Shown in pieces: positions 3,848-31,497 of a stretch of DNA of 35,977 nucleotides (within the stretch, counting starts at the first letter, position 1; each line of letters opens with the position of its first letter). Under the pieces are notes generated by a model. The model worked only from the letters and a program-made list of their open reading frames with translations. It did no database searches and was not told the origin of the DNA. Made by a program: the position numbers and the translations under genes. Source of the DNA: a virus; the IMG/VR virus record IMGVR_UViG_3300045988_082157, one strand, 5' to 3'.

Positions 3848-3868
3848 CGGTGTCCGACTTGGACACCG
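3848..3868. repeat. Copy 1 of the 21-bp hairpin motif CGGTGTCCGACTTGGACACCG (intergenic)
   Basis: Exact 21-mer, identical to 23161-23181. It has 8-bp arms and a 5-nt centre. Confidence 0.9.
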
Positions 3869-5148: not shown

Positions 5149-7453
5149 CAATGCGGATCGCCTCCTCCCAGTCCGCCTGATCAACGGAAAATGTATACAC
5201 GCTGTAAAAACCGCCGTCTGTGCGCTCCGTGAGCTGAGCGAGGCATCCGGTTACCATGCGCCCCTCCGGCGTGCGGACGGTAACAAGGTGGCCGAGCATG
5301 GCCTCCAGCACCGCGCAGTCCTCCTGCGTGTAAAACGCGCAGGCCACCGAGATGCTTTGTGCCATGTGCTCGCTGCGCTCGATCACCGGGTAAGCTCGCC
5401 CGGCGAGCTGGACGGCTTGGACTTCCTGCTTTCGCGTCCGCGACGTCGTCCGATGCGCGCTTTCTGAGTAGGGGAGCGGCAGGATCGCGCCGGTATCCAT
5501 GTCGGACAGCGTGATGTACTGCACCGCGATGGTTGCGGCGACCTCCGGGGACAGGCCATAGTTCGCGCTGCCGCTGTAGCAGCCCCGCACCTGATACCGC
5601 ACGGCGCCGACGCTGGCGGCGTCCGTGAAGCTGCGCTCCGTTGTGCGGCCGATGAGCCGCCCGTCGCGGTAGATCAGGAAGAAATCATAGCTCCCCGTGG
5701 TCTGCCAGGCCAGCAGCGCCGCGTCATCGGCGTCGACCGTCAGAGAGATCGCAGCCCCAGGGACGTTCACAACCTGAAGCGCGGCTTCGCCCCACGGTGA
5801 CCACAGCCCGTATTCGTTCTGCACGCGCACGCGCACAGTGTATGCTCCGTCGGAAAGATACGTCGGGCACGTCCACGTTTTCTCGGTGCCATAGTACACG
5901 CTGCTGACGGGCTGCCCTGCAAGCTCGACCTGGTAGGCAAGCTGTTCGGCAGATTGCCAGCCGACGACTGGGCGCGGCGTCTGAGCGCGGACGGCCAGAC
6001 TGGGCGCGGCAGGCGCGCCGACGCATATAAATTCGGCTGGTTCGCTCCATGCGCCTGCGGCATTGTCAGTGTTGTATGTGCGCACCCGCCAGTATTTTGT
6101 GCCGCCACCGAGCGTATTCGGAGGGGCAGTGTATGTCGTTTCAGCTCCGGTCACGGTTGCCAGCGCGTTCCATGTCTGCTTATCCGCAGATAATTGCAGC
6201 TCGGCCTTTGTCTGCTGCGTTCCGGTTGAGATTATGTGAGCCCACTTAAAAACTGTTGGGCTCGCATTGTCCACGACCTCGCCGTTCGGGGAAACCGCTT
6301 CAGCGCTGGACAGCACCTCCACTGTTGAGAGTTCCATCCATTCGGATGTTGCGGAAATACCTTCCGCAGTGGCCGCCGTTACCTGCCATTGAATTGTGTC
6401 TGTAGTGAATGTTCCGGCAGGTATAGTAACAGATGGCGTTTCACCGCATTGAATTGTGTGGATTGCGGAATTGCTTGAAGACCTCCAGCGGAAGGTTGCT
6501 GTTTTTTGTGGGAGGCGGGTATAGCTGTCGCCGTAATCATTTCTAATTTGGCTGAGCATCCATGTGAACACATTTGGCTTTGTTTTTGCAACATACCCTG
6601 ATGCAGGGCTCGCCGATTTAATTGCTACACCGTATACCTTGTGCTCAAACCATTCCGATGTAACAGTCACACCGTTGTTTGCTGTTGCGACAACGCGCCA
6701 CATAATATCCCCGACAGGGAGCACACCCGGCGGAACGAGAATGTAGCTAGAACTATTCTCATCGGGTTGCGTAGCGGCAATGTCAATATCATGTATGGAG
6801 CTTTCTGTTTTTCGCTTCCATTGCACCTTTGCACTTTGTTGCTTTACTGCTGTGTACGTCACGTTCGAACTCGGAAGTGCGAGCCATGAAATTTTGGTTT
6901 CCGTACCAGCGCCCCATCCAAAATAGTTAGTATCCGTGAAGTTCAGCGTTACGTTGGCATCGTCGAATTCGACTTTCAGCTTGGGTTTCTGTGCATGGCG
7001 CGTTGTTGCAAGAATAAAGTAAATATGAGCGTCAAAAATAGCTCCATTGTCCAAAAAGTATCTAGCTTCCTTTTCGCTGTTGCTCTTGTCCATGATAAAC
7101 GTGTCGGCAGCGTAGCACGGCAAATTGCGTTTTTCGACACCCACGCGGCCATACGTATTTGTTATATCACGGCCCCCAGTTGTATAGGTAATGGCTTCTG
7201 GATCGATCGGCCTATCTATTGAGCCCAAACGTAGAGTTGCATAGGAATCATTGTAAACAAAGGCAACGACATAACAGCTCGCTGTTATACTGATTATCCT
7301 TTTAAACTTATACGAATCTGGGATTTTTTCGAACTGAACGCAAAGATACTGTCCAGATTCATACTGTACCGTTGGCGATGCATGAAAGTTAGTGGTTGGG
7401 CTATTTGGATCAAATGCACCGGATTTAATTCCGTTCAGCGTAAGGAAACTCAT
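5141..7453 (-). CDS. Distal-tail (Dit)-like protein with several FN3/Ig-like repeats
   Basis: 770-aa ORF directly after the tape measure gene. It has recurring modules ending in W-x-V...S-x-W (IMWRVVATANNGVTVTSEW, IQWQVTAATAEGISATSEW, KYWRVRTYNTDNAAGAWSEP, YTVRVRVQNEYGLWSPW). The N-terminal third (about 6380-7453) is visibly more AT-rich. Confidence 0.65.
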   Translation of the reverse strand: MSFLTLNGIKSGAFDPNSPTTNFHASPTVQYESGQYLCVQFEKIPDSYKFKRIISITASCYVVAFVYNDSYATLRLGSIDRPIDPEAITYTTGGRDITNTYGRVGVEKRNLPCYAADTFIMDKSNSEKEARYFLDNGAIFDAHIYFILATTRHAQKPKLKVEFDDANVTLNFTDTNYFGWGAGTETKISWLALPSSNVTYTAVKQQSAKVQWKRKTESSIHDIDIAATQPDENSSSYILVPPGVLPVGDIMWRVVATANNGVTVTSEWFEHKVYGVAIKSASPASGYVAKTKPNVFTWMLSQIRNDYGDSYTRLPQKTATFRWRSSSNSAIHTIQCGETPSVTIPAGTFTTDTIQWQVTAATAEGISATSEWMELSTVEVLSSAEAVSPNGEVVDNASPTVFKWAHIISTGTQQTKAELQLSADKQTWNALATVTGAETTYTAPPNTLGGGTKYWRVRTYNTDNAAGAWSEPAEFICVGAPAAPSLAVRAQTPRPVVGWQSAEQLAYQVELAGQPVSSVYYGTEKTWTCPTYLSDGAYTVRVRVQNEYGLWSPWGEAALQVVNVPGAAISLTVDADDAALLAWQTTGSYDFFLIYRDGRLIGRTTERSFTDAASVGAVRYQVRGCYSGSANYGLSPEVAATIAVQYITLSDMDTGAILPLPYSESAHRTTSRTRKQEVQAVQLAGRAYPVIERSEHMAQSISVACAFYTQEDCAVLEAMLGHLVTVRTPEGRMVTGCLAQLTERTDGGFYSVYTFSVDQADWEEAIRIDA

Positions 7454-12068: not shown

Positions 12069-13748
12069 TTACGCGCCGGCCGTCACGCTGCCGGAACCGG
12101 CAGCAACGGCGCGTCCGGCCTCATCAAGCTCGACGACCGTGACGGTCTCGCCGCTCTTTGCGGCAATCGTCTTGTTTGTCGGCATATCCAGCCAGTCCTT
12201 GCCCAGCCGTTCGCCGTTACCGACTGCGATGGCCTGACCACCAGTCTGGTACTTAAGCGTTCCGGAGCCGTTGCCAGCCACCGTGACGACGCTCTTACCG
12301 GAGCCACCGGCCGCCGTCGTGACGATCAGCGTGCCAAGTTTCTCATTGGCAAGGTCCGGCGCGAACGAGATCGACGTGGTCGGCTGCGTGTTGCGGAAGT
12401 TTACGAGCACAAAGCTCTCGCCGCGTGCAGGCTTACCATCATAGATTCCGATGGAGCGGTATACCGTCATGTTCCGCAGGAACAGCGGGATGTCGGAGGA
12501 CGCGATGGTCGCGCCTTCGCGCTCCACCATGCGCATCATGTCGCCAAAACCACCCGCAATGTCGTTGTCAGCCATGAACTCAAGCTCAACGATGTCACCG
12601 CCGACGATCGGGAAGGTGTTGTTGATGCCGGCAGCCAGCGCCGCTGCGGCATCAAATGCCAGGGCCTTGGCCATCAGGCGGATGTGTGTTTTCCGGTTCA
12701 TCACCCAGAAGGTGCGGCCGTCCGAATACTTCGGGTCCGCAATCCCCAGCGCCTCGATCAGGCTGCCGAAGAAGGATGCACCGGATGTGGAATCAATGTC
12801 CAGTTTGAGGATGTGGCTGGTGTTCAGCGCGGTAAAATCGCCCTGATCGTTGCCCCACCAAGAGGGCTTCTCCGCCGCGGCAAGCCGGGTGATAAAGCCA
12901 ACAGGCATTTTTACGCCCGTGCCGTATACGATCGACTTGTCGAGCGCACGCGCGTTTGCCTCGCCCATCGCGTTGAGGATGCTGGTCAGCAGCTGGAGAT
13001 CGGAATCGGCGGCAAGCACGGCGTTAGAGATAGCCATGTAGCCGGCCAGCATGTATCCGTCCATTTCCAGCTGGGTAAAGTCGAGGACGATCTCATTGAT
13101 ATTGGCTACGGTCTCCGTCCACACGGCATCAGAGGCCGTGCCGACGATGTTCTGGCGGGCCTTTCCGCTCAGAGATTCGCTGTGGACGTACTTCCACAGT
13201 TTGGAGTTCTGATATGTCAGATCGCGCAGGATCTGCATAAACTCAGTCGGAATACCCAGCTCAGCGCCGGTCGCGCTGTTCTGCTGAGCGCGGAGCTGAC
13301 GGAACCGATGAAGGAACTCCTTCGTGCTGTCACGCGCCAGCAGCTCATCGCGCTGCTGATAAGTCAGGCCGAACCAGCGGCGTTCGGGATTGCTCATGTT
13401 TACATTGCCCCTTTCATGATTGGTGTTGCCGGTGTCAGAGTTGGACACCGAATTGTTGGCCGGAGGCGGCGTCTGCGCGGCCTCCAGACTGCGGATCTGC
13501 TCCTCGCGCTGTTCGATCTCACCCTGAATCCGGGAGATCTCCGCCGCGTTTGTGCTGCGTTCCTGCTCAAACGTATCGATCGCCGAAGATACTACGCTGC
13601 GCTCGTCGTCGGTCGCTGCCTCCGTGATTGCCTGACGGAGCTGTTCCTCGCGGGCGGCGAAGCCGTCGCGCACCTGCTCCAGCGGCGTGAGCTGCGCGCG
13701 AAGCGCCTCGATCTCACTGTTGAGCATCAAAACTCTAAGTACTGACAT
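12069..13748 (-). CDS. Major capsid protein, HK97 fold, with an N-terminal coiled-coil delta/scaffold domain and a C-terminal Ig-like extension
   Basis: 559 aa. It directly follows the prohead protease. The N-terminal ~115 aa are coiled-coil. The C-terminal ~90 aa (LGTLIVTTAAGGSGKSVVTVAG...) look like an added beta domain. Confidence 0.85.
   Translation of the reverse strand: MSVLRVLMLNSEIEALRAQLTPLEQVRDGFAAREEQLRQAITEAATDDERSVVSSAIDTFEQERSTNAAEISRIQGEIEQREEQIRSLEAAQTPPPANNSVSNSDTGNTNHERGNVNMSNPERRWFGLTYQQRDELLARDSTKEFLHRFRQLRAQQNSATGAELGIPTEFMQILRDLTYQNSKLWKYVHSESLSGKARQNIVGTASDAVWTETVANINEIVLDFTQLEMDGYMLAGYMAISNAVLAADSDLQLLTSILNAMGEANARALDKSIVYGTGVKMPVGFITRLAAAEKPSWWGNDQGDFTALNTSHILKLDIDSTSGASFFGSLIEALGIADPKYSDGRTFWVMNRKTHIRLMAKALAFDAAAALAAGINNTFPIVGGDIVELEFMADNDIAGGFGDMMRMVEREGATIASSDIPLFLRNMTVYRSIGIYDGKPARGESFVLVNFRNTQPTTSISFAPDLANEKLGTLIVTTAAGGSGKSVVTVAGNGSGTLKYQTGGQAIAVGNGERLGKDWLDMPTNKTIAAKSGETVTVVELDEAGRAVAAGSGSVTAGA
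13430..13450. repeat. Copy of the 21-bp hairpin motif with 2 mismatches (CGGTGTCAGAGTTGGACACCG), inside the capsid gene
   Basis: 19 of 21 positions match the 3848/23161 motif. The 7-bp arms are perfect. Confidence 0.7.
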
Positions 13749-14333: not shown

Positions 14334-15510
14334 TGTCGTCGCCTCCCTGTGTCAATTTTTTCTGATCGCCGATCATCCTCCGCGGGATGTAATTCTCAAG
14401 GATAACCAGCTCGTTCAGGCCCTCGCGCGGACTCAGGCTGAGCCAGTCGCGGGTCTCGTTGCCATCCATCAGGCCGCGGATGTAAAGCCTCTCGGCGACT
14501 TCGGCAAGTTCCTTGATGCTGTAGCCGTACAGGCGTCGCATCGACATTGTAAAATACAGCTCGCTGGAGATCAGCAGTTTGCGTGTGAGCTCCTGGCAGA
14601 TGATGTTTGCAATGGTTGTGGCCGTTGTTTTGATCATGTTGTTGTGCTCGCTGCTGGAGTATGTGCCGACGCCGAGCATGTATGGTGTCACGCCGACCAG
14701 CGATGCGACTGCACGCTTATCAAGCTCCACGCTGTCACGGATGGCCAAATCGGTAAGGCTCAAAGGCTTAACCTGCTGTACGTCCATCAGCTCTGCCGGG
14801 ATGATCCACGGTGCACCTGCGCTGCTGTTGGACAAATACTGATCGACCAGACGCTTGCGGCCTGCCTCGTCCGCGAACTCATCCGTCAGCGCGTCAACCT
14901 TAACGATAACGCTTGGCTTCCATTTGTCCGACATAAAGCCCTTTTTTGTCGCCGATGTCTGGCGCAGGCTGTTCGCCAGATCGTGCATGCTCATCCGCAA
15001 ACCGAGCCCGCGCCACGGCTGCGCAGGGTCCGGCCAGCGCCGGAAGTGCAGCACTGCGTCGGAGCCGAAGCGGACACCGCGCCACATGACATAGTAGCTC
15101 CGGCCATTGTCATCGCTCATGGCGACCGCATCCGGCATCGGTTCCAACTCTGTCAAACGGCCACCAGACGTGTGCGGCAGCAAAAAGGCGCTTCCGCAGC
15201 TGTTCGTCAGCATTGTCCAGACGATCCATGCAATCAGATCCTTGCGCGTGCCGTGCGCCCACGGCTGGATGTCCATAAACCGTGACAGCGCATTGCGAAC
15301 GCGAACGTCTCCGTCTGGCGTATTCTGCATGAGTTGTATCGTTGCGTTGGATACGATATCGGCAAGGCCACCAACAGCAGCCTGCACGTCCGGGCTATCG
15401 ATCAGCCGCGTATAGCCGGGCACTCGCAGAGTGTCCTGGTCAACCGCGCCAATCAAAAACTTTTGCAGCGCCAAATCCTGCGCAGATCTGCGCTGCACCT
15501 TGACTTTCAA
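14323..15510 (-). CDS. Portal protein (HK97 family)
   Basis: 395 aa, immediately downstream of the terminase. Overlapping starts and stops indicate one operon. Confidence 0.85.
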   Translation of the reverse strand: MKVKVQRRSAQDLALQKFLIGAVDQDTLRVPGYTRLIDSPDVQAAVGGLADIVSNATIQLMQNTPDGDVRVRNALSRFMDIQPWAHGTRKDLIAWIVWTMLTNSCGSAFLLPHTSGGRLTELEPMPDAVAMSDDNGRSYYVMWRGVRFGSDAVLHFRRWPDPAQPWRGLGLRMSMHDLANSLRQTSATKKGFMSDKWKPSVIVKVDALTDEFADEAGRKRLVDQYLSNSSAGAPWIIPAELMDVQQVKPLSLTDLAIRDSVELDKRAVASLVGVTPYMLGVGTYSSSEHNNMIKTTATTIANIICQELTRKLLISSELYFTMSMRRLYGYSIKELAEVAERLYIRGLMDGNETRDWLSLSPREGLNELVILENYIPRRMIGDQKKLTQGGDDNGA

Positions 15511-17642
15511 TCGGCATCATCATCCTTTCCGTCTTTTTTGTCATACCATCCGGCCGCCTTGTTGCTGGCGGTCAGATCCTCCAAATAGGCGCACACCGCA
15601 AACACGGCGGCGTCAAAAACGTCAATGCGTAGGTTCGGCTCGATCTTCTGGTACATCACCATATCGTCCGCCTTCTCAATGCCGGCAACGTTCTGTACGC
15701 AGTATTCAAACGGTTCGGCGTGGAGATAATACAGCGTCCCTTTTTTCGCGCTGTTCTCAATGTAGCGGAATCCCTCGGACTTCCGTGTAAACAGCTGCGG
15801 CTGGTCTTTAATTGGGAAGTGCTCCTGTTTCATCTCGACGAAATACTCCCGGCAGAACTTCCGGTCGTGCCCGACGCGGCGGATTTTAAAACCGTCCTCG
15901 CGGAGCTTTTTGTACCACATCACCACGTCGTGATAATTCGTTACCGCGAAATTCGTCATGTCGAGCCATCCGTCTTCCTGCCAGCCGAACAGCGGGATCT
16001 GATCCTGCTGCGCCTTGACCATCGCGGCAGGCCGAGGAAACCAGCAGTGCGGGATGATGATGTCCACGCCCTTGTAGTGACCGAACAGCGCACCGGCCGT
16101 CAGATCGTACAGCTTCGACAGGTCTGTGCCGCCATACCACCGGATCGGCAGTTTTGCCAGCTGCGCAAGCGTCCAGCTGTACCGTTCGTCGCTCTTGCGG
16201 AACTCCGCAATGTTGAACCATGCCTTCACAGCATTTGTGGTGACATTCAGAGACTTGTTCAAAAACTCCGGTCGAAGCGTCGGGTTTTCGGCTGCCATGG
16301 CTGCGTCATTGATCATGTCCTGCGGCCGGATGGAATAGCCCCAGCCAGGCGAGGCTGCCTTTAACACAGCAGGATCTGATAGATCAACATCGCCGTTTTC
16401 CATGGTCGGGGCAGAACATAAAAAGCAAAACACAGAATCAGCGGCATCGCCGGTAACAGTCCCGCGCAGGATTTTCCGGCAATACTCCAGATGGCCTAGG
16501 AGGAAGCCGCGCGCATGCGGTCCGTTGGAGCTGATGACGATTACAAGCTTATTTGTGTACGCCTTGGTCGCGTCTTTGAGGATCTGGTATTGCTGCGGGC
16601 TTTTGTAGGTGTGTGCCTCGTCTGCGATCACGATGTTACAGTTAAACGAGTCCTGCTTATCCGGGTTCGCCGCGAGTGCATCAATGGACACCATGCCGCT
16701 TCCGATGTCGCCAGAAATTGAGCGTTCCGCGTTATTATCGATCACGCGCAGTCCCTGAACGGGGTCGTCATCGGTTGTGATTCGCAGTCTGGCGAGGTTG
16801 TATTTTAAAAACAAGAATACTTCCTTCGTCTGACGTAACGCGCCGCCAACGGCGTAGACCTTGGAGCCGGATTCTCGTTCGTAAAGCGCCAGCGCGAAGG
16901 CCAGGGCCGCCGCAAAGGTTGTTTTGACGTTTTTTCTCGGGATGAAGTCAACGGCTTCCTTGAAGCGCCGGATCTTCGTGTCTGGGAGATAAAAGCCCAT
17001 AACGTTATACACGATAAACTTGTGATAGGGGAGCAGGAGAAACGGCGTACCGCGGAGTGGAGTGGCATCGAGGAATTCACCCTGCTGGTGGCAAATCATC
17101 GTCTCGATGATGGCAATGATATCGTTCGCGGGCTCAGCACGGAACTCCCACTTTCCGGTGCCCAAATCGGACACGTATCGCTTGCAGGCGAGCACTGCGT
17201 CCTCGCATAGACCAGATTCGCCGGAAAGCACGGACTGCACAAAATTCTCAACGTCGCGCTGATATTGTGCAGCGTGCTCGATGGCATGGCTATGTGCGTC
17301 TTCGAGCATCCGCTCCAGCCTGCTTTGCCCAGGGGCCGGCTGGGCATTCTTAGCGCGAGCCTTGCTCAGCCCGGTTGCGGTAAGACCAAGCTGGTTGCGT
17401 AGGCTCTGCACTGTGGCGCGGAGATCCTCGACCGCCGTCCAGTACGGGCTTTTCGCCGTATATTCCGCGCCGGTTTTATTAACCATCGTGCACACGCGCT
17501 GGCCGCCCTGGGTTTTCCACTCCTTTTCGGCGCGGGAAAGCTCGCGTTCGGTCTTTGCAAGCTGCTTGATCGTCGGCTCGAATATCTCGTTGTAGGTCCC
17601 GACAAGCTGCATGTCCTGCCGGATCATGTCCTCGCGCGCCAT
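15507..17642 (-). CDS. Terminase: P27-like small-subunit region (aa 1 to ~105) fused in frame to a Terminase_1-type large subunit
   Basis: 711-aa ORF. The N-terminus ends with the TerS-like motif LRNQLGLTATGLSKARAKN. A typical TerL N-terminus begins at the internal Met 112 (ATG at 17309). There is no stop codon between the two parts. Confidence 0.85.
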   Translation of the reverse strand: MAREDMIRQDMQLVGTYNEIFEPTIKQLAKTERELSRAEKEWKTQGGQRVCTMVNKTGAEYTAKSPYWTAVEDLRATVQSLRNQLGLTATGLSKARAKNAQPAPGQSRLERMLEDAHSHAIEHAAQYQRDVENFVQSVLSGESGLCEDAVLACKRYVSDLGTGKWEFRAEPANDIIAIIETMICHQQGEFLDATPLRGTPFLLLPYHKFIVYNVMGFYLPDTKIRRFKEAVDFIPRKNVKTTFAAALAFALALYERESGSKVYAVGGALRQTKEVFLFLKYNLARLRITTDDDPVQGLRVIDNNAERSISGDIGSGMVSIDALAANPDKQDSFNCNIVIADEAHTYKSPQQYQILKDATKAYTNKLVIVISSNGPHARGFLLGHLEYCRKILRGTVTGDAADSVFCFLCSAPTMENGDVDLSDPAVLKAASPGWGYSIRPQDMINDAAMAAENPTLRPEFLNKSLNVTTNAVKAWFNIAEFRKSDERYSWTLAQLAKLPIRWYGGTDLSKLYDLTAGALFGHYKGVDIIIPHCWFPRPAAMVKAQQDQIPLFGWQEDGWLDMTNFAVTNYHDVVMWYKKLREDGFKIRRVGHDRKFCREYFVEMKQEHFPIKDQPQLFTRKSEGFRYIENSAKKGTLYYLHAEPFEYCVQNVAGIEKADDMVMYQKIEPNLRIDVFDAAVFAVCAYLEDLTASNKAAGWYDKKDGKDDDAD

Positions 17643-21362: not shown

Positions 21363-21759
21363 GACGTTCTCCTTTCTCGCTGCTCCGGACGCGCTGGCAG
21401 TCCGGGCAAAATTTTCGATTCGTGCAGCTCCACACGCCGCCGCGAGGCACGTTGTTCCGGAGCTCGCAATAAACGTTGTAGCATGGGCTTAGTTTGCGCG
21501 GAGCAGGGGAGCGCGCTGGCTTGCGATTGGGTGCCGGCTTCTCCGGCCTCTCCGGCTTCGGCCGCGTCTCGCGCCATGCGTTGCGCGCGCATCCGCAAGA
21601 CTGCGATTTCCCGCTGTTAAGCCGCCACGCCGCAACAACAGTTTCCCTGCCGCAATCGCACCGGCAGAGCCATAGCGCGTGACCATGCTGGTCACGGCCG
21701 GAAAATTCAAGCACATGCAGCTTCCCAAACTGCCTGTTTGTGAGATCAGTCCTGCGCAT
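21352..21759 (-). CDS. Hypothetical zinc-ribbon protein (135 aa)
   Basis: The preferred start is the ATG at 21759 (MRRTDLTNRQFGKLHVLEF...WLCRCDCG...SCGC), with GGAGG 9 nt upstream. Confidence 0.55.
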   Translation of the reverse strand: MRRTDLTNRQFGKLHVLEFSGRDQHGHALWLCRCDCGRETVVAAWRLNSGKSQSCGCARNAWRETRPKPERPEKPAPNRKPARSPAPRKLSPCYNVYCELRNNVPRGGVWSCTNRKFCPDCQRVRSSEKGERRDK

Positions 21760-23224
21760 TGTGTTTCGCCTCCGGCAACGGCAACCAGCGCAGGATTTCC
21801 CCATCATCCGGCTCCTTAAACCAACCGAGATACCCACCATGCACATCGTCGGTCTCATATATTATGGAGCCATATTCGGAGATAAGGAGTAGGACCGGGC
21901 CGTCTGGGAAATCGCGGTCTGTACGCCACCCGAGTTGTTCTGGGCCTGACGGCGTTGGCTTAAGATCATCCGTCAGCCCCAGCAGATAGTCCGCCGAGCA
22001 CCGGAGCGCCTTGCACAGCTCCGGCACATGCTTTGCATCTGGGTCGAGGACGTCCGTGTTATAAAAAAACTCGTCGCCGAAGTCCCCGTTTGCGTATGCG
22101 CGGATTTTCCAGACGGACTTGTCCACAGAATAATTCGCAAAGGCGAGTTTTACATCGTCCGCGAGGCCGGCCGCGTCGATGGCCTTCACGAGCCGCGCGG
22201 CCTTGCACTGGATGGTCGCCCGGTAGACGCGCTGCTTATTCTCCTTCGAGTCCTCCTCTTTTCGCTTCTCATCGGCGTTTTTGTCGGTGCGGTACTGCTT
22301 TGCCTTGGAGCACATCTGATCGCAGACGTCATAGCAGCCACGCGCTTTCGCGCCATACTCGCAGTCCATGCAGCATTTCTCGCCCAGACACTGCCCGCAC
22401 CACGAGTGGCAAAGCGCATCGTGCCGGAGCGTTGCGTCATCGCGGGAGCTCGGGCAGAGTTTGCGGTCGGGGCAGTGCAGACACGCACTCGGCCGCCATT
22501 TTGCACCGCCTTTGGCCAGCCCCCGCACCTGCTCAATTCCGGCAGATGTGGGAAATTCTTTCGTCCGGGCGAATGCGTCGCGCAGGCGCATCTGCAAGGC
22601 CACCTCGCACCGCGCAAGCTCCAAGGCCGTCGCGTCCGGGAGTTTCCCAGCCGCCCACTGCGTTTTGAAATCCTGAATCAGGTTCTCCTCGATCATGTGC
22701 AGGTTCGCAAGCTTTGTCTTACTGACGTTACAGGCTTCTGCCACATGGTCGCGCATCCGGCCGGGGAACTCCACGCCCTGTTCCTTGAGATCGTAGAGAA
22801 GCCGCTCGACGCGCTGCGCCGCCCGACTGATTTCGGCGCTGGTCAAAACGCGCGCGGTGGAGTTTGCCATAATCAGTTCAAGTTCTTCCATCGCCGCGCT
22901 GCGCGGGCTTCTTACAAAAACGGGAACCTTGCGCAGATCCTCTCGCCCTTCCGCGACGAGCGCCCGGACGGCGGCAGTGCGCCGGTGGCCGGAAATAAGG
23001 CGGTACTTGCCGTCCTCGGCCTCGGTTACGGTCGGCGGGTCCATAATGCCGGAAAGCGCGATGGAGTTTTTGAGATCTTCGAGCTTGTCTTCGTCGACCG
23101 CATAAAAGTTCGCGTCGTTTGCGATCAGATCGTCGATGTCCACTTGCAGCAGCTCACGCCCGGTGTCCGACTTGGACACCGCCTGCACCTGCTGGGCAAA
23201 AATACTCGATACGTCAAACGGCAC
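21746..23224 (-). CDS. parB: ParB-like protein (ParB/Srx N-terminal domain) with a Cys-rich middle region, a second HTH and a C-terminal extension
   Basis: YRLISGHRRTAAVRAL ParB-box motif. Immediately downstream of ParA. The preferred start is the GTG at 23224, which has better RBS spacing than the TTG at 23230. Confidence 0.75.
   Translation of the reverse strand: MPFDVSSIFAQQVQAVSKSDTGRELLQVDIDDLIANDANFYAVDEDKLEDLKNSIALSGIMDPPTVTEAEDGKYRLISGHRRTAAVRALVAEGREDLRKVPVFVRSPRSAAMEELELIMANSTARVLTSAEISRAAQRVERLLYDLKEQGVEFPGRMRDHVAEACNVSKTKLANLHMIEENLIQDFKTQWAAGKLPDATALELARCEVALQMRLRDAFARTKEFPTSAGIEQVRGLAKGGAKWRPSACLHCPDRKLCPSSRDDATLRHDALCHSWCGQCLGEKCCMDCEYGAKARGCYDVCDQMCSKAKQYRTDKNADEKRKEEDSKENKQRVYRATIQCKAARLVKAIDAAGLADDVKLAFANYSVDKSVWKIRAYANGDFGDEFFYNTDVLDPDAKHVPELCKALRCSADYLLGLTDDLKPTPSGPEQLGWRTDRDFPDGPVLLLISEYGSIIYETDDVHGGYLGWFKEPDDGEILRWLPLPEAKHNAQD
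23161..23181. repeat. Copy 2 of the 21-bp hairpin motif CGGTGTCCGACTTGGACACCG, inside the 5' end of parB (candidate parS)
   Basis: Exact 21-mer, identical to 3848-3868. It encodes AVSKSDTG of the ParB-like protein. Confidence 0.9.
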
Positions 23225-24020
23225 TTGCAAGCCCTCCCTCCAAAAGCTCGCCCATCGTCACGGGCGGCTGAATGTACTCCTGCACAAATGCCCGATAGTC
23301 GTAGCCTGCCGCCGAACGTGGCGAGTAGACCGTGATGGGCTTGCGCTCAAAGGTCATCTCGTCAATTTTGTCGGTGCGGCGGATGGTCTGCTCGAAGACG
23401 GGAAGAATGCCGCACTGTCGGAGGCTCGCCTCCGCCTCAATCACGACCGGCGTGTTGCGCCACATGGTGATCAAAGCGCCCGCGATCTTGAGTGCCGGGT
23501 TAATTTTGTGCATATTGTCGATCTGCCGCGAGACGTTTGCAAGCCCACGCAGGCTGAACGCGTCTAGCTTGATCGGGATGATGACCTCGTCGGAGGCCAG
23601 AAGCGCCGCAGCGCTTGCCGCGTTGAACGCCGGCGGGCAGTCAAAGATCACGTAATCATACGCATCATCTTCGCGAATGGCGTCGCAGAAATCCTTGAGA
23701 CAGGCGCCCTTGACGCGGTTTCCGATGGCAGACAGATCTAAGTCCATCAGCTGATCGGACGCGGGCAGCAGGTCGACCTTGTAGTCGGTCGCCCAGATAT
23801 TCTCCGCGTAATACGGCTCGGCTTCTCCCAGCATCACCTCGGCGACGCCACAGAGGTTCTGCCCGGCAAGGCCGTAAAACTCGGTGGCGTTGCACTGGCT
23901 GTCGCAGTCAGCAAGCAGCACGCGCTTTTTGTGGTCGGCGGCCAGAATATAGGCCATGTTCACGCTCGTGACGGTCTTTCCGACACCGCCTTTGAGATTT
24001 AATATCGAGATTGCTTTCAT
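23214..24020 (-). CDS. parA: ParA/Soj-family partition ATPase
   Basis: Deviant Walker A motif MKAISILNLKGGVGKTVTS. 268 aa. Confidence 0.9.
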   Translation of the reverse strand: MKAISILNLKGGVGKTVTSVNMAYILAADHKKRVLLADCDSQCNATEFYGLAGQNLCGVAEVMLGEAEPYYAENIWATDYKVDLLPASDQLMDLDLSAIGNRVKGACLKDFCDAIREDDAYDYVIFDCPPAFNAASAAALLASDEVIIPIKLDAFSLRGLANVSRQIDNMHKINPALKIAGALITMWRNTPVVIEAEASLRQCGILPVFEQTIRRTDKIDEMTFERKPITVYSPRSAAGYDYRAFVQEYIQPPVTMGELLEGGLASAV

Positions 24021-24038: not shown

Positions 24039-25370
24039 TTAAAATGGCACCGGGCAATCACCGGGCAGCTCGGTAAAGTCGAGCTGTGACACCTCCTCTG
24101 CCGGCGTCTTCGGGGGCGTCCAGTCGCGGCGCGACTCCATGAAGGTCTGCGTCTCGCCGTTGAATCGCAGATAAAACGAATTCCCAGCGATTCCGGTTTT
24201 GTTTTTCGCAACTGTAACAACGCGATCACAGTCCACGATTTTCTGGTTTTCGCGGAAGAGCAGCAAAATGAAGTCCGCGTCCTGCTCGATCTGACCGGAA
24301 CTGCGCAGGCTTGACATCGTGGGTGGTGGGATTTTGCCGGTCTTTTTGTTCGGCTCCGGGCGGCCCAGCTGCGACAACGCAATGATTGTCGGGCCGCCCT
24401 GGCGGCCGAACTGTTTCAGCGCACGCGAGACTGCGGTAACACGAGCATACTCCTGGTTTCCCCACGGCGTTTTGTCCGAGGACTCAATGAGCTGCAAGTA
24501 GTCGATGTAGATCACATCGTAGTGCTTGGCCATTGAGTACAGCCGGATATCGCCAACCGTCATACCGGCTGCCTCGATGATATCCAAATTTCTACCGCCG
24601 AAATCGCCGCTGATCGCGGCCAGCGTGTCCCAGTCATGGTCGTTCATGGCATTCAGCTGAATTTTCGGCAGGCCGATCTGCGCCGCCGCGGAGATCATTG
24701 CGTCTGCCAGCTTTTCGCAGTCTGTCTCAAAGCTGAAAAAGCCGACTTTCTTCGTCTTTGCCTGCTCGCGGGCGGTTGCTAACGCGAGTGTCGTTTTGCC
24801 GTCCGAGGGGTATCCGCCGATGATGCCAAAGTCACCGCGCATCGTGCGCAGATGGTCGTTGAGCTTTTCAAAGCGCCAGGGCAGATATGTCGGCTTTACG
24901 GATGGATCGTGGCGCTTGTAAAAGTCCGCGAGCGCGGCCTGCATCGTCATTGCCCGAACGCCCGGCCGATCCACCATAACAGCGTTGATGCGATCGAGCA
25001 TGGCCCGAATGTCGTCCTCCGTTTCCGCGGAGAGGATTTCTGCGGCCGCCTCCTGCATCAGCCGAAGGCGCGCTTGCCGTTTGAGATCGGCTATGTATGC
25101 CTTGACATGCGCCGCCGTCGGCGTCAGATCCATGATCTCGCGGAGCAGCTCCGTATAATCCTTGCCGATCACGCCGACGACCGTGACCGGATCGACCGGC
25201 CGCCCGCGTTGGAACAGACCACGCATAGCCTCGAAAATCGTGCGGTACGGGCCGTCGAAATACTCCGGTTTCAAAGCCTGGAGCGCAATGCCGACGGTGC
25301 GGTCGTCGATCAGCATAGACCCGATGACGCCAAGCTGCGCATTCAGCAGCGCTTGCCTGTTCTCCATCAC
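24039..25370 (-). CDS. dnaB: Replicative DNA helicase (DnaB family)
   Basis: DnaB-type N-terminal domain (LLNAQLGVIGSMLID) and a Walker A motif GGYPSDGKTTLAL. 443 aa. Confidence 0.9.
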   Translation of the reverse strand: MMENRQALLNAQLGVIGSMLIDDRTVGIALQALKPEYFDGPYRTIFEAMRGLFQRGRPVDPVTVVGVIGKDYTELLREIMDLTPTAAHVKAYIADLKRQARLRLMQEAAAEILSAETEDDIRAMLDRINAVMVDRPGVRAMTMQAALADFYKRHDPSVKPTYLPWRFEKLNDHLRTMRGDFGIIGGYPSDGKTTLALATAREQAKTKKVGFFSFETDCEKLADAMISAAAQIGLPKIQLNAMNDHDWDTLAAISGDFGGRNLDIIEAAGMTVGDIRLYSMAKHYDVIYIDYLQLIESSDKTPWGNQEYARVTAVSRALKQFGRQGGPTIIALSQLGRPEPNKKTGKIPPPTMSSLRSSGQIEQDADFILLLFRENQKIVDCDRVVTVAKNKTGIAGNSFYLRFNGETQTFMESRRDWTPPKTPAEEVSQLDFTELPGDCPVPF

Positions 25371-26119
25371 ACAAACCTCAAGCCGCTGGTATCAATCGTC
25401 CCCGTTGGCTCAGCTGCCTGCGACGGAGCCGCATCAACGCTTTTCCGGACTTCGTCCGTCCAGCGCTGCTCGTTCAGATACGTCGATGCGTGCGGGATTC
25501 CGATTCCGGCCATCCATTCCGGTGAAGCCTTCTGTGCGGTCAGGGCCCGTCCGATCTCGACGATCAGTGCATCATCCGGCCGCAGCCGATCCCATGCGCG
25601 GATTGCAGCCTGTCTGCCCTCGCCGCGAGGGTAGAACTTCCAAAATCCCTCGAAGCGTTCCGGCTTCCATTCCGCTGCTGATTTTGCGCGTCGCCCCCCA
25701 TGGGGGCTTTTAGGGGGTAATATATTATTATTTAATACATTACCCATCGATTTTTTTGCCGATAAGGGGTCGGTTTTTTTGCCGGTAAGCTTATCGGCAT
25801 TTTTGCCGGTAAGGGGTGGCGCTTGCAGCACCTGATAGATGCTCCGTGTAGGGTGCCCGTCCTTCGGATCAGGGGCATACCGGACTTCAATGTGGCCGGC
25901 CTTTTCAAGCGCCTTGATAAGGCGGCTGACCGAATCCTCGGACAGTTTGTTTGGCCCGGCAAGCTGCGCATTGGTCGCGGTGCAGCACCCGCCCTCGCCG
26001 GTGTATCCGGTGAGCGTGGAGATCTGCCCGTACAGCAGTTTTGCATTTGCCGGGATGGTGTCATCGTAGAGCACCGTCGCCGGGATGACCGCCCAGAATG
26101 CCCGAAATTCTTCGCTCAA
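25367..26119 (-). CDS. Replication initiator/replisome organiser (N-terminal winged-helix, DnaD/lambda-O-like organisation)
   Basis: TTG start at 26119 with a GGGAGGTG RBS. It overlaps the helicase start. A low-complexity linker is encoded by the iteron region. Confidence 0.7.
   Translation of the reverse strand: MSEEFRAFWAVIPATVLYDDTIPANAKLLYGQISTLTGYTGEGGCCTATNAQLAGPNKLSEDSVSRLIKALEKAGHIEVRYAPDPKDGHPTRSIYQVLQAPPLTGKNADKLTGKKTDPLSAKKSMGNVLNNNILPPKSPHGGRRAKSAAEWKPERFEGFWKFYPRGEGRQAAIRAWDRLRPDDALIVEIGRALTAQKASPEWMAGIGIPHASTYLNEQRWTDEVRKSVDAAPSQAAEPTGTIDTSGLRFV
25719..25816. repeat. Candidate origin of replication: AT-rich tract plus 3 direct and 1 inverted iterons (TTTTTGCCGRTAAGG)
   Basis: Direct copies at 25753-25767, 25776-25790 and 25800-25814 (periods 23 and 24 bp). 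An inverted core cttatcggca lies at 25790-25799. The AT-rich run aatatattattatttaatacat lies at 25719-25740. Confidence 0.5.
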
Positions 26120-27740: not shown

Positions 27741-27757
27741 TGAATTAGGTGATTCCA

Positions 27758-28087
27758 ATGAATAATTTCAAAAGGTTTCGTGAGCTAAACGGCGAGTCGC
27801 AACAAGCGGTTGCTGATTTTCTTGGCATTGATCGCTCAACATACACGAAGTATGAAACTGAGCAAAAGGCACCTCCATACTCCAAGATTGAGCGATTAGC
27901 GCAGCATTGGGGCACGACCGTCGCTACGCTAATGGGCACAGATGAGGGAACAAAAAACCTCACCGGGATTCCCGATGAGGTTTACGATATTGCACAAAAG
28001 GTCATGAGTCTGCCGCCTGCGGCGCAGACGGAAGCGCTTGCGTATCTCGATTTCCTAAAGCAGCGATATACGCGGAAAAAAGATTGA
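27758..28087 (+). CDS. CI-like XRE-family repressor
   Basis: FKRFRELNGESQQAVADFLGIDRSTYTKYE HTH. Divergent from the early operon. The ATG at 27758 has an AGGTGA RBS; the GTG at 27749 is an alternative start. Confidence 0.8.
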   Translation: MNNFKRFRELNGESQQAVADFLGIDRSTYTKYETEQKAPPYSKIERLAQHWGTTVATLMGTDEGTKNLTGIPDEVYDIAQKVMSLPPAAQTEALAYLDFLKQRYTRKKD

Positions 28088-28250: not shown

Positions 28251-29402
28251 GTGAACTACAGCAAGAACATAGATAGCTACGGCTCAGAGTTTTGGAGTTT
28301 CAACGCCGCTGGGGTCAGTTACCCGAACAAAGATGGAACTTTACGGCAAGACATAATTGGCGCCTTGAACTGCGGCTCCCACTATAACTGTCGCATTGAC
28401 GAATATCTGTATCAGGAAGAAAAAGCTTACTACATTGTTATTGACGGCAAGATAGTCGGGAACGTGCCGCGAAACATCGCAAAAGAGTTCGCAGCCAAAT
28501 CGGCCGCTGGATATATAATGGAAATCACCGCCGCTGGGATTCACGGAGGCCCCAGCGCAGATTTTGACGATGACGATGATGACGGCGAGCCGCGATACTA
28601 CGGTGTGCATCTGACGGTAAAACTAATCAGCCCAACCGAGCAGAAAATTAAGAGTATCACTGAAACTGATGGCGTATATGCCGTGGGCGAGCCGGAACGA
28701 CACAGCAGTGTTCGTGACGAGCCAATTGACGAGCACATTGAAAGCCTCGAAAGCAACAGCCCAATCGAGCAAAAAATTAAGAGTAGCACTGAAACTGATC
28801 GCGTATATGCGGTGGGCGAGCCAGAACGACACGACAGTGTTCATGGCGAGCGAACTGATAAGTATATTGAAAGCCCCGAAAGCAACAGACCGCCGAAAAA
28901 AAACAAAAAACGGCTTAGCTTTCTCGGGACAGTTGCGATTCTGTTACTTGCGTTTATGGTGCTGACAGGTATCTCGAACGCACTGGCAAAGGCGCTGCAT
29001 ACAACAAAACACCCTACCGGCGAGCGGCTGAACATAAACAACGTTGAAAAGTATGCTCCGGATCTTAATGATAAACAGGAAGATCAGACTGCGCCAGCTG
29101 CGGCGGAAGCGTCGGACGGCGAAGAATATTACACCGAAGAAGAACAGGCCGCTGCCGCAGCGGCGTATTACGCGAGCATTGGAGGGAATCCATATCTGCA
29201 AGACGATGCAGAAGCAGATATGGCTGAGGAACCGACCGAAGAATCGTACACATATATTCTGAACACAAACACGAAAGTGTTCCATCGGCAAAACTGCTCA
29301 TCCGCAAAGCGGATCAAAGATAGCAGCCGCTCATCAGCGACTGGAACACGTGACGAAATAATTGGAAAGGGATATAGCCCGTGCGGCATATGCAAGCCGT
29401 AG
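28251..29402 (+). CDS. Membrane protein: N-terminal HIRAN-like domain, 2 x 43-aa repeat, TM helix, acidic linker, C-terminal Cys-rich (Ada-type Zn-binding-like) motif
   Basis: GTG start. It has a FNAAGVSY...IVGNVPRNIAKEFA pattern, a TM segment LSFLGTVAILLLAFMVLTGI, and the C-terminus KVFHRQNCSSAKRI...GYSPCGICKP. The segment is lower in GC. Confidence 0.7.
   Translation: MNYSKNIDSYGSEFWSFNAAGVSYPNKDGTLRQDIIGALNCGSHYNCRIDEYLYQEEKAYYIVIDGKIVGNVPRNIAKEFAAKSAAGYIMEITAAGIHGGPSADFDDDDDDGEPRYYGVHLTVKLISPTEQKIKSITETDGVYAVGEPERHSSVRDEPIDEHIESLESNSPIEQKIKSSTETDRVYAVGEPERHDSVHGERTDKYIESPESNRPPKKNKKRLSFLGTVAILLLAFMVLTGISNALAKALHTTKHPTGERLNINNVEKYAPDLNDKQEDQTAPAAAEASDGEEYYTEEEQAAAAAAYYASIGGNPYLQDDAEADMAEEPTEESYTYILNTNTKVFHRQNCSSAKRIKDSSRSSATGTRDEIIGKGYSPCGICKP
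28631..28888 (+). repeat. Tandem 129-bp direct repeat (2 copies) inside the 383-aa gene
   Basis: 28631-28759 and 28760-28888 align without gaps. They are nearly identical over the first ~75 nt and more diverged after that. Confidence 0.9.
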
Positions 29403-29423
29403 CGGTGCCCGACTTGGACACCG
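29403..29423. repeat. Copy of the 21-bp hairpin motif with 1 mismatch (CGGTGCCCGACTTGGACACCG)
   Basis: 20 of 21 positions match. It starts directly after the TAG stop of the 383-aa gene. Confidence 0.85.
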
Positions 29424-29626
29424 AGGGCACGCCGCGGATACGATGATCGCACATAGAGTTGCCCCGTATCGGCGTGCCGGCGTCGACACGGGGCGTTTCT
29501 GTGCGGCAGGCGATTGGGAGCGCCCGTGCTTCTACCTTACGCCGCGGGTAATGGTTAAGTCCACTACCTATCATGGGTTTTTTCGGGGAATGATGGTTTT
29601 CGCAAAATTAACGGAGGTGCATAATC

Positions 29627-30034
29627 GTGGAACGCATGTTGTGGGAGATCTGCCGCGATGCAAAAGCGGAACAGCGGCTGACGTATCAGCAGATTGCCGA
29701 TGCTGCCGGATTATCGGTAAACGCAGTAAGCCAGTATTTGCGAGGTGAGACAAAGAGCCCGTCCGTGTACACCGTGGGGCCGATCTGTGCGGCAATCGGC
29801 GTATCCATGAACGACTATTTCAGGATAGGGGAGAACACGTCGGAGAGTTTCTTGGCTCGCACGGAGGCTCTCCGGCTCGAAAATGCAAGTCTACGCACGC
29901 AGCGTGAGCATATGAAAAAATCATTGCGGATGCATCGCATTACAACCTTCATCTTGCTTGGCATTGTGGCCGTCTGCGTGCTGGCGCTGCTGGTGGACGT
30001 CCTGAACCCCGCCATCGGCTGGGTGCGCGCATGA
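29627..30034 (+). CDS. XRE-type HTH protein with a C-terminal transmembrane anchor
   Basis: GTG start with GGAGG 9 nt upstream. It has the HTH LTYQQIADAAGLSVNAVSQYLRGE, a coiled-coil segment, and the TM segment ITTFILLGIVAVCVLALLVDVL. Its stop overlaps the integrase ORF (ATGA). Confidence 0.7.
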   Translation: MERMLWEICRDAKAEQRLTYQQIADAAGLSVNAVSQYLRGETKSPSVYTVGPICAAIGVSMNDYFRIGENTSESFLARTEALRLENASLRTQREHMKKSLRMHRITTFILLGIVAVCVLALLVDVLNPAIGWVRA

Positions 30035-31497
30035 TGGAGGCTGATATGCAAGCACAGACACAGCGCGTCGCGGCGGCTTACATCCGCGTGTCGACGGACG
30101 ACCAGACGGACCTTTCTCCGGAGTCGCAGTTTGAGAAGATCCGCGAGTATGCCGCAAAAAACAACTTGATCCTGCTCTCGGAGTACATTTTTCGAGATGA
30201 TGGCATATCCGGCAGAGCGGCAGAAAAACGGCCGGGATTCCAACGGATGATCGCAGCGGCCAAAGACGCCGCGCATCCATTCGACGTGGTGATCGTTTGG
30301 AAGTATTCTCGTTTTGCGCGCAACCAGGAGGAATCAATATTTTACAAATCCGTGCTGCGCTCAAAATGCAATGTGGATGTGGTATCGGTTTCGGAGCCAT
30401 TGGTTGCCGGGCCTTTCGGCAGCCTGATCGAGCGCATAATAGAGTGGATGGATGAGTTCTACTCGATCCGCCTCTCCGAAGAAGTGAAGCGATCGATGAC
30501 GGTAAATGCGCAGAAGGGGAGGCTTCAGGCGACGCCGTCCTTTGGCTACTGCGTGAAGGATCACATGCTTGAGATCGTTCCGGAGGAGGCGGAGATCGTG
30601 CAGGAGATCTTCCGCCGTTTTGTCGCGGGCGACGCCATGTATGGAATAGCAATGGATGTAAACGCACGAGGTGTGCGGACGCACCGGGGAAACCCATTTG
30701 AGAACCGCACAGTAGACTATATCCTGAACAACCCAACATACATAGGCAAGCTCCGGTGGACGCCGACCGGGAAAACGCGCCGAAATTTTAAAAATCAGGA
30801 CAGCGTCATCGCGGATGGCGCGCACACACCAATCATCGACATGCAAATGTGGGAGGCCGCACAAGAGCGGATCGCGGAGCTAAAGCGTACATACAAGCGC
30901 TACAGCAAGCCGGCTGGAGATCGTAAGCACTGGCTTTGCGGGATTGTTCGTTGTCCGGGCTGCGGAGGGACGCTCGTGTACACCGCGCCGCATTACATGC
31001 AGTGCAACAACCGGCTAAAGGGCCGATGCGCCAGCTCACAGCATATCGCAGTCGAGCTGCTGGAAGAAGCTTTTTTGCAGCAGCTTCAGCATGATTTCAC
31101 GTTCGCCGAGGCGATGGCGTACACGGCCAACTATACACACAATGATCACGTTGCGGCGGCGCTTGCGCAAAAGCGCTCGAAAATCACAAGCCGCATGGCG
31201 CGGCTGAGGGAAGCGTATCTGGATGGCATCGAGTCGCTGCCAGAATATAAAGCATCCTTGCAAAAATTCCAGGAGCAGCTGTCGGAAATCGACGAAGAAA
31301 TCAAAAAAGCGGCAGAAACGCCCGAAGGCGTTTCCACCGAATCTATGCGTGAAGCCATAGCCTCCGTGCTCCGGACGCTGCGCGCGCCGGACGCAACTGT
31401 TGCGCAGAAATATGCAGCAGCTCAAGCCATCATCGACAAATGCTATTTTGATAAATCAAAGATGCTGCTGACGATTTCATACAATTTCAGCGTTTGA
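30031..31497 (+). CDS. int: Large serine recombinase (phage integrase)
   Basis: Resolvase-type N-terminus AAAYIRVSTDDQ, a recombinase domain, the zinc ribbon CGIVRCPGCGG...MQCNNRLKGRC, and a C-terminal coiled coil. The likely true start is the ATG at 30046 (GGAGG 5 nt upstream). Confidence 0.9.
   Translation: MMEADMQAQTQRVAAAYIRVSTDDQTDLSPESQFEKIREYAAKNNLILLSEYIFRDDGISGRAAEKRPGFQRMIAAAKDAAHPFDVVIVWKYSRFARNQEESIFYKSVLRSKCNVDVVSVSEPLVAGPFGSLIERIIEWMDEFYSIRLSEEVKRSMTVNAQKGRLQATPSFGYCVKDHMLEIVPEEAEIVQEIFRRFVAGDAMYGIAMDVNARGVRTHRGNPFENRTVDYILNNPTYIGKLRWTPTGKTRRNFKNQDSVIADGAHTPIIDMQMWEAAQERIAELKRTYKRYSKPAGDRKHWLCGIVRCPGCGGTLVYTAPHYMQCNNRLKGRCASSQHIAVELLEEAFLQQLQHDFTFAEAMAYTANYTHNDHVAAALAQKRSKITSRMARLREAYLDGIESLPEYKASLQKFQEQLSEIDEEIKKAAETPEGVSTESMREAIASVLRTLRAPDATVAQKYAAAQAIIDKCYFDKSKMLLTISYNFSV

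Follow-up and report, generated by a model that had tools for sequence, protein, structure and literature searches.

The 35,977-nucleotide IMG/VR virus record IMGVR_UViG_3300045988_082157 (the window, meaning the whole stretch that was analysed) represents a circular temperate phage, siphovirus-like by annotation, and carries a short palindromic motif in several dispersed copies, one of them near the 5' end of a gene for a ParB-like protein. The motif is best explained as the parS at which the phage's own ParB-like protein binds specifically, and we regard this as likely, with segregation as the likeliest use. Its identity as a ParB site is well supported by comparison with relatives, its role as a centromere less so. 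The sites exist, exceed chance expectation by far and, as far as the relatives tell, track this ParB gene through evolution.

A 21-mer, CGGTGTCCGACTTGGACACCG, occurs without mismatch at 3848-3868 and 23161-23181, and copies with one and two mismatches stand where a preliminary description of this DNA had placed them, after the stop codon of a 383-aa gene and inside the capsid gene. That description counted four copies. A degenerate search for further ones, scored with a position weight matrix (PWM) built from relatives, yielded a fifth good copy in the large-terminase (TerL) gene, with a PWM score of 27.2 against 26.9 for the copy at 29403, and one decayed copy in a tail gene:

Site 1, 3848..3868 (core 3850-3866, GTGTCCGACTTGGACAC), intergenic: exact 21-mer between the TGA of an 80-aa open reading frame (ORF; 3869-4111, minus strand) and the GGAGGG ribosome-binding site of the tail-fibre gene.
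Decayed remnant, 5491..5511, minus strand (CGCTGTCCGACATGGATACCG): within a 770-aa tail gene, three mismatches, PWM score 15.9.
Site 2, 13430..13450 (core GTGTCAGAGTTGGACAC): capsid codons 100-106, two mismatches, encoding VSNSDTG in the variable N-terminal segment of the capsid protein.
Site 3, 17156..17176 (ACGTGTCCGATTTGGGCACCG on the minus strand): TerL codons 156-162, inverted relative to the others, encoding VSDLGTG.
Site 4, 23161..23181 (core GTGTCCGACTTGGACAC): parB codons 17-23, exact 21-mer, encoding VSKSDT.
Site 5, 29403..29423 (core GTGCCCGACTTGGACAC): directly after the TAG of the ORF at 28251-29402 (plus strand), one mismatch, about 200 bp upstream of the helix-turn-helix (HTH) gene at 29627-30034 and the serine-recombinase operon.

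Against these five good copies and one decayed copy, about 0.1 would be expected by chance. The core pattern GTGYC-N7-GRCAC has exactly 5 matches in the window compared with 0.14 expected, and dinucleotide-preserving shuffles give 0.01 chance matches to the 21-mer at three mismatches or fewer, in agreement with the earlier view that chance recurrence is negligible. The flanks of the copies are dissimilar, and the repeated unit is therefore only ~21 bp long. Some details of the first account had to be revised. The parB copy occupies gene nucleotides 50-70, which are codons 17-23 and not ~15-21, and the uniform orientation and the regular spacing of 9.6, 9.7, 6.2 and 10.4 kb do not hold because of the minus-strand copies at 17156-17176 and 5491-5511. 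With the remnant included, the intervals are irregular, at 1.6/7.9, 3.7, 6.0, 6.2 and 10.4 kb. At the position homologous to the remnant, the relatives L041-L045 keep a strong site (AGGTGTCAGACTTGGACACCG, score 33.3), and for this reason we read the remnant as a fossil site. The right half-site of site 5 (TTGGACA) overlaps a weak sigma-70-like match, TGGACA-18-TACGAT (9/12, 29415-29444), which stands ~180 bp upstream of the HTH-integrase operon.

The same motif recurs in two sets of relatives: set A, of 26 viral contigs with ParB proteins 65-97% identical to that of the window, and set B, of 68 Oscillospiraceae genome loci whose ParB is only 30-45% identical. All 26 contigs of set A have a site at parB nucleotide ~50 and 3-6 sites per locus, with the consensus nnGTGTC[A/c]GA[C/g/t]TTGGACACCG. 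In the 1.02 Mb of set B the pattern was found 219 times, compared with 4 in shuffled sequence. Overall, ParB-positive relatives (30-97% identity, more than 90 loci) carry the copy at the 5' end of parB plus 2-7 others per ~20 kb. Relatives that share parAB and lack the motif, which the preliminary description had named as a finding that would speak against a parS, did not appear, as every ParB-positive relative carries sites. The motif can be written as the duplexes CGGTGTCCGACTTGGACACCG and GTGTCCAAATTGGACAC or as the search pattern GTGYCCRANTYGGRCAC; a scan of viral contigs with GTGTCCAANTTGGACAC returned at least 120 loci.

Judged from these alignments, the conserved unit appears to be a 17-bp palindrome, GTGYCCRA-N-TYGGRCAC, in which a single base separates two 8-bp half-sites. 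The lineage of the window extends this core to 21 bp, with CG preferred on each side, while the wider family prefers T/A outside; flank preference thus differs by lineage. Two half-sites and a central base describe the unit better than the 8-bp arms and 5-nucleotide loop of a hairpin, the form in which the motif was first described. A hairpin in RNA or single-stranded DNA, acting as a terminator without a U-tract, as an mRNA stabiliser or processing site, or as a structure for replication or packaging, would account for the folding of the 21-mers at -8.5 to -16.5 kcal/mol, for the T:A to C:G changes that occur jointly on both arms and for the two copies placed directly after stop codons. It sits poorly with the rest of the evidence. 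The arms are not perfect in every copy, as had been claimed, since the copy at 29403 has a C.A mismatch on the plus strand. Among relatives the outer bases of the arms often fail to pair, while the sequence itself, unpaired centre included, is conserved down to 30% protein identity and shared by all copies of a genome. A given syntenic site points either way in different relatives, and relative to transcription the copies are found on both strands. A U-tract is absent, as already observed in the preliminary description, and there is no match to an Rfam family. Finally, all copies vanish together with ParB while the genes that host them remain. A sequence-specific, double-stranded recognition site fits these facts about the motif and a hairpin does not, and we consider the hairpin very unlikely.

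The protein that would recognise such a site is encoded, together with its partner, by two adjacent genes:

parB-like gene, 21746..23230, minus strand: 494 aa, PF02195; phrog_27290 and phrog_4715.
parA, 23214..24020, minus strand: Walker-type ATPase of 268 aa, PF13614 and PF01656; phrog_164.

The ParA protein is without an N-terminal HTH and its gene overlaps the parB start; all 60 family loci examined have parA immediately upstream of parB. The ParB-like protein matches PF02195 over residues 29-120 (E = 6e-9), and its residues 14-223 align with Noc and ParB structures (phmmer, 7ol9 and 6t1f), including the GxRR box, where SGHRRTAA aligns to GERRxRA of Noc and ParB. Residues G81, R83, R84, A87, N123 and R127 do not vary among 48 diverse members of the family, and the HTH segment GRMRDHVAEACNVSK aligns against GKSRSHVAN. 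An AlphaFold2 model with a predicted local distance difference test (pLDDT) score of 87 gave target-normalised template-modelling (TM) scores in Foldseek of 0.76 with Noc (7nfu), 0.75 with ParB-parS (6t1f) and 0.64 with KorB. The protein is accordingly modelled with the N-terminal domain and DNA-binding fold of ParB, Noc and KorB.

Past residue ~220 no PDB ParB match was found, and the C-terminal ~270 residues are without a ParB counterpart. Residues ~240-494 comprise a Cys-rich segment, with conserved cysteines C253, C259, C281, C286, C287, C290, C303 and C307, a long helix (308-354) and a small beta-rich C-terminal domain; no canonical C-terminal dimerisation domain follows directly on the DNA-binding domain of this ParB. 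With a Walker-type ParA upstream and apparently cognate palindromic cis sites, one inside the operon, the system would be a type I ParABS in every respect that can be read from sequence except the canonical C-terminal domain. The subfamily is large, with 407 representative clusters at E < 1e-30, although phrog_27290 is annotated 'unknown function', and its hosts are Oscillospiraceae; members are found in prophages of gut Clostridia (Oscillibacter, Flavonifractor, Intestinimonas and others), and strains with a member include Pseudoflavonifractor gallinarum DSM 107456 and Oscillibacter valericigenes Sjm18-20.

The link between motif and protein is closest within parB itself. Site 4 is at the only position that the entire ParB family shares: an embedded site is located at nucleotides +9 to +57 of parB in essentially every member, and a lineage with a 367-aa ParB, at 39% identity, likewise has a parB 5' site. 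The central proposal of cognate ParB sites, one of them inside parB as in the spo0J gene of Bacillus subtilis, is strongly supported by comparative genomics, through co-occurrence with ParB, site loss after ParB replacement, coherent variants within genomes and constraint on codons. Codon use in 64 diverse parB genes was compared with background. At the embedded site, 28 of 34 Leu codons are TTG, against a background of 8%. Ser is written as TCG in 20 of 25 cases, where the background is 12%, and at the TCC position as TCC in 38 of 39, where it is 35%, while the central third-codon positions and those just outside the site vary freely. The rare codons therefore appear to be chosen so that the palindrome stays. 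The encoded peptide follows V-[S/P]-x-[S/L]-[D/G]-T, in which S/P covaries with D/G (71, 16, 11, 5), as expected because the palindrome couples T:A/C:G changes in both half-sites. In the AlphaFold2 prediction this peptide, residues 18-23, falls in a disordered linker (pLDDT <50). These results indicate that the sites are under selection at the DNA level. The intragenic sites 2, 3 and 4 share one codon phase (capsid SVSNSDTGN, terminase YVSDLGTGK, ParB AVSKSDTGR).

Site variants are also coherent within genomes: from the site embedded in parB one can predict the type of the other sites in that genome (Spearman 0.80, p = 1e-12, n = 52). In the window the sites are dispersed upstream of the tail fibre, in the capsid, TerL and parB genes and near the lysogeny module, and the syntenic classes among relatives are upstream of the tail fibre, in a tail gene, the capsid gene, TerL, the parB 3' part and the parB 5' end, and in the lysogeny module. 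Site 1 is syntenic in relatives, but its orientation varies there, the tail-fibre site being found either way round. In all, 76% of sites lie in ORFs and 24% are intergenic, compared with 9.7% of the DNA, a 2.5-fold intergenic enrichment. Some relatives have intergenic tandem sites, with 2-4 copies at 37-bp spacing (L094:12829-12956, also L088, L089 and L097), shortly before a ribosome-binding site and at a distance of ~1.3 kb downstream from parB. Such 37-bp-spaced arrays have the classical centromere layout.

Other phage proteins are poor candidates for the partner of the motif. The replication module varies in type among relatives that share the motif (50% versus 90% identity), and the motif stays the same with any type of DnaB, initiator or HTH regulator; because of this indifference, all three can be ruled out. 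Mycobacteriophage L5 has dispersed repressor sites known as 'stoperators', and one could imagine that the sites described here are likewise operators of another DNA-binding protein, such as an XRE-type HTH protein (27749-28087 or 29627-30034). Two such regulators are present in the phage, and two of the sites lie at gene ends directly after stop codons. The motif persists unchanged, however, where the relatives' HTH regulators are only 36-37% identical or absent, it vanishes when only the ParB gene is replaced, and one copy is always within parB. L5 stoperators are asymmetric 13-14-bp sequences in short intergenic gaps, oriented with transcription, whereas the window sites are palindromes that lie mostly inside genes and face both ways relative to transcription, with a syntenic site flipped between relatives. 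An operator function of this kind is improbable, if a shade less so than the hairpin.

Loss of ParB provides a natural comparison. A sister lineage retains ParA (71%), DnaB (60%), initiator (54%), Rep247 (71%) and TerL (86-91%), has a DUF3102 (PF11300) gene after parA in place of parB, and has zero sites. Since this lineage keeps ParA, ParA is also ruled out as the partner of the motif. The replacement genes include L159:3796-4884, with relatives in L160, L162, L171, L174, L186 and L191, as well as L334:8750-9800 and L252/L295; L336, with a DUF3102 gene at the contig start, was left outside the ParB-positive and ParB-less classes. The DUF3102 protein and ParB share just their first 11 residues, MTVPFDVSRIL against MQVPFDVSSIF (FDxxxx[FL]), and a profile-profile comparison of the two families reached 2.8% probability, with the alignment limited to this N-terminal peptide, which is probably the ParA-contact segment. 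K-mer counting in the DUF3102 sister lineage found nothing convincing as a replacement dispersed motif.

The loss can be followed in individual genes. Site 2 is present in all close ParB-positive relatives, while the ParB-less sister lineage is without it and reads PPAAEPTG in that segment. The TerL site is kept in ParB-positive lineages even at 64% TerL identity (YVSDLDTGKW, encoded by TAC GTG TCA GAC TTG GAC ACC), while the ParB-less lineage has YVADL(G/D)(S/R/C)GKW with other codons, so that synonymous and non-synonymous changes together destroy the site. The idea that the TerL site is a by-product of the Walker-A motif was rejected on these grounds, given that the ParB-less lineage has YVADLxxGKW, a similar peptide that differs in codons and residues.

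The same comparison bears on whether the motif is a generic host repeat, of the repetitive extragenic palindromic (REP) kind, or the site of a host protein that is merely present in phages. Its occurrence in two ParB-less contigs, considered below, would agree with this. On the other hand, no well-formed site, and only 4 loose matches, were found in 80 ParB-less gut-phage loci (1.3 Mb), nor does the sister lineage have any. The exact 21-mer has six matches in 2.9 million viral contigs, all six at homologous positions of this phage lineage. Within conserved genes the sites stand in frame, parB always holds one copy, and the variants are lineage-specific. A host repeat is the least likely of the explanations considered here.

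If the motif is the ParB site, as we think likely, a ParB dimer would read the two GTGYCCRA half-sites through its Noc/ParB-type HTH domain and would then, by analogy with ParB, Noc and KorB, close into a clamp dependent on cytidine triphosphate (CTP) and spread from each site. The adjacent ParA ATPase would work on the ParB-site complexes, and the five functional sites round the 35.9-kb circle would load ParB genome-wide. The likeliest use would be the positioning and segregation of an extrachromosomal replicon, whether that replicon follows infection or excision or is in a carrier or plasmid-like state, with an effect on transcription as a possible second role. Segregation fits because the parAB operon lies directly behind the initiator and helicase genes, and positioning and segregation are favoured by the constant parA-parB pairing, this location of the operon and the tandem arrays. 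What we infer from the comparisons is that ParB binds the sites, that it closes as a CTP clamp and that it serves partition, whereas the distribution of the sites is observed directly.

The sites could also serve ParB in a job that is not mainly segregation. ParB would then be a genome-wide regulator or organiser, a CTP-dependent sliding clamp like KorB or BisD that loads at 5-9 sites and switches or organises the phage or prophage, silencing or activating genes at a distance, silencing or insulating the genome in the lysogen, or positioning the DNA and organising it for replication or packaging, and the network would not be a plasmid centromere. The integrase in the window, the integrated close relatives and the intergenic enrichment of sites all speak for such a role, as do the position of site 1 against the tail-fibre ribosome-binding site, that of site 5 upstream of the HTH-integrase operon with its weak promoter-like overlap, and the ~270 extra C-terminal residues beyond a canonical ParB. 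Precedents are KorB, with 12 sites on RK2 (PMC11790492), and BisD of ICEclc (PMC12409273). However, the 76% of sites within ORFs are remote from promoters, parA is coupled to parB in all 60 loci, and no KorA-like partner was identified. A regulatory role is moreover compatible with partition, as KorB does both. We think a network devoted to regulation or organisation possible, though rather unlikely.

Several observations weigh against the parS reading or against partition as the role. Support for the identity of the ParB site is comparative throughout. Relatives with a 77%-identical ParB are integrated, on 92-kb and 123-kb contigs with a tyrosine integrase and host genes, and the family member L124 lies in the Oscillibacter valericigenes chromosome; since close relatives are integrated prophages, the lysogen has no obvious need for partition. 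No ParB residue that co-varies with site type (position 4 T:A/C:G, position 7 A/G) could be demonstrated. The top co-variation columns are scattered (19, 235, 244, 252, 269 and others) and confounded by phylogeny, and the canonical HTH is near-invariant.

Two ParB-less contigs with the parA-DUF3102 cassette, furthermore, still carry perfect sites: IMGVR_UViG_2911186762_000001 (complete, 34,250 nt), with 5, and L334, with 3, whose protein is a chimera of DUF3102 and the ParB C-terminus. We do not take them as a refutation, since both trace to swaps with flanks of 95-99.6% identity. On either side of its cassette the first matches the ParB-positive Pseudoflavonifractor gallinarum prophage L083 at 95-96% identity, and L334 is 95-99.6% identical on both sides to the ParB-positive contig L264. 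The simplest reading is that both hold legacy sites after a very recent cassette swap. The resulting series, in which sites are kept where ParB is present, intact where it was just lost and gone where it was long lost, would be consistent with the parS reading. It is also possible that the DUF3102 protein, or the ParB of a co-resident prophage acting in trans, uses the same sites; action in trans is conceivable because the same isolate genome holds L003, a ParB-positive relative of the window. Of the original parS proposal, then, the cognate relation to the ParB-like protein stands, by inference from comparison, and a plasmid centromere is not established, given the integrase and the integrated relatives.

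The arrangement can be set beside several known systems. In the temperate phage N15, according to Ravin & Lane in 1999 and Grigoriev & Lobocka in 2001, the sites are reportedly scattered, partly in late genes. Both phages are temperate, with a ParA/ParB-type pair and single palindromes of ~16-17 bp that form no single array and are dispersed over the genome, some of them in late genes. The pair of N15 is SopA/SopB, and SopB acts at four single palindromic inverted-repeat (IR) sites, IR1-IR4, with the sequences GTGCGACCnnGGTCGCAC (PMC7205306). N15 differs in being an obligate extrachromosomal linear-plasmid prophage without an integrase, whereas the window has a serine recombinase and integrated relatives. 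SopB belongs to another subfamily, the window ParA is without an N-terminal HTH, its ParB is distinguished by a Cys-rich region and additional domains at the C-terminus, and the host phylum and the site sequence are different.

Chromosomal parS sites of B. subtilis occur in several dispersed copies, mostly in genes, one of them inside parB (spo0J). The ParB (Spo0J) of that species has homologous N-terminal CTPase-type and HTH domains and palindromes of 8-bp half-sites. The window site is unrelated to TGTTNCACGTGAAACA and of odd length (8+1+8), its system is on a 36-kb phage and not around a chromosomal origin, and the C-terminal half of its ParB differs. KorB of RK2 is a ParB-family CTP clamp with 12 dispersed palindromic sites that acts as partition protein and global regulator (PMC11790492); it resembles the window protein in its N-terminal and DNA-binding domains (the target-normalised TM score of 0.64 given above), and IncC is its ParA counterpart. 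Its OB sites are tied to promoters and to the partner KorA, whereas sites of the window family are 76% intragenic without a KorA-like partner, and the two kinds of site have no sequence similarity.

Temperate cluster A mycobacteriophages reportedly carry parA-parB and a phage-borne parS, as Dedrick et al. are said to have described in 2016. There parABS stands in place of the integration cassette, with parS repeats on either side of the operon, whereas in the window integrase and parAB coexist and sites are genome-wide; extrachromosomal mycobacterial prophages are treated in PMC7157519. The system works as these precedents do, but has a host range, site sequence and ParB architecture of its own and exists alongside an integration module. 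Literature searches brought up N15, KorB, BisD and a 2025 ParB-CTPase fold survey but no description of this family or motif.

The remaining features of the window place the sites in a genome whose ends are identical (positions 1-55 equal 35923-35977, 55 bp); because of this repeat the genome is circular, at 35,922 bp, as previously noted. The majority of genes lie on the minus strand:

1696-3831, minus strand: collagen-like tail fibre.
5141-7453, minus strand: 770-aa tail gene.
12069-13748, minus strand: major capsid gene.
13749-17642, by annotation: protease, portal and terminase block.
15507-17642, minus strand: TerL, 711 aa.
24039-25370, minus strand: DnaB-like helicase, directly upstream of parAB.
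25367-26119, minus strand: lambda-O-like initiator, directly upstream of the DnaB-like gene.
27749-28087 and 29627-30034, plus strand: the two XRE-type HTH regulators.
30031-31497, plus strand: large serine recombinase (integrase), PF00239, PF07508 and PF13408; phrog_95.

The serine recombinase indicates a phage built for integration. In relatives that share the gene order and have a 77%-identical ParB, the integrase is of the tyrosine type (L239:2213-3253), and because integrase types differ in this way, the integration module is exchangeable while parAB and the sites stay. The replication module (24039..26119) is context only, as the motif is independent of it; within it, the initiator gene holds three ~24-bp direct repeats at 25746-25817 (ATCGnTTTTTTTGCCGrTAAGGGGT), probably origin iterons. 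The TerL N-terminus (aa 6-100) matches small-terminase families (phrog_361), which suggests a fused small and large subunit. The 383-aa ORF before site 5 has no family assignment and contains an internal 129-bp tandem duplication (28628-28885, 87% identity), and the plus-strand block at 27-30 kb has a GC content of 0.49-0.51 compared with ~0.58 elsewhere in the window. A partly palindromic 13-mer, CGCCGCTGCGGCA, occurs three times on mixed strands (12639, 29153 and 35831), which may be chance in GC-rich coding sequence. Megablast of 20-30 kb of the window against GenBank phages gave zero matches, and a scan of the window for Rfam families and tRNAs found none.

In summary, we have defined the probable recognition site of a widespread and uncharacterised ParB subfamily of gut Clostridia prophages. 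An exact oligonucleotide is now available to experimenters, and the motif can serve as a marker for spotting these elements. The relatives in which ParB is present, just lost or long lost form a natural series for the gain, retention and loss of parS, and the family raises the question of the reason why integrating phages keep a complete ParABS. The DNA site also shapes protein, with V-S-x-[S/L]-[D/G]-T imposed on three unrelated proteins. If the rather unlikely reading as a genome-wide clamp is true, selection on the dispersed sites would be strong enough to dictate amino acids in ParB, capsid and terminase. The swaps between ParB and DUF3102, which have the FDxxxx[FL] peptide in common, would then point to modular adaptors of ParA, and a phage that has just undergone a swap may for a time use the sites or the ParB of co-resident prophages.

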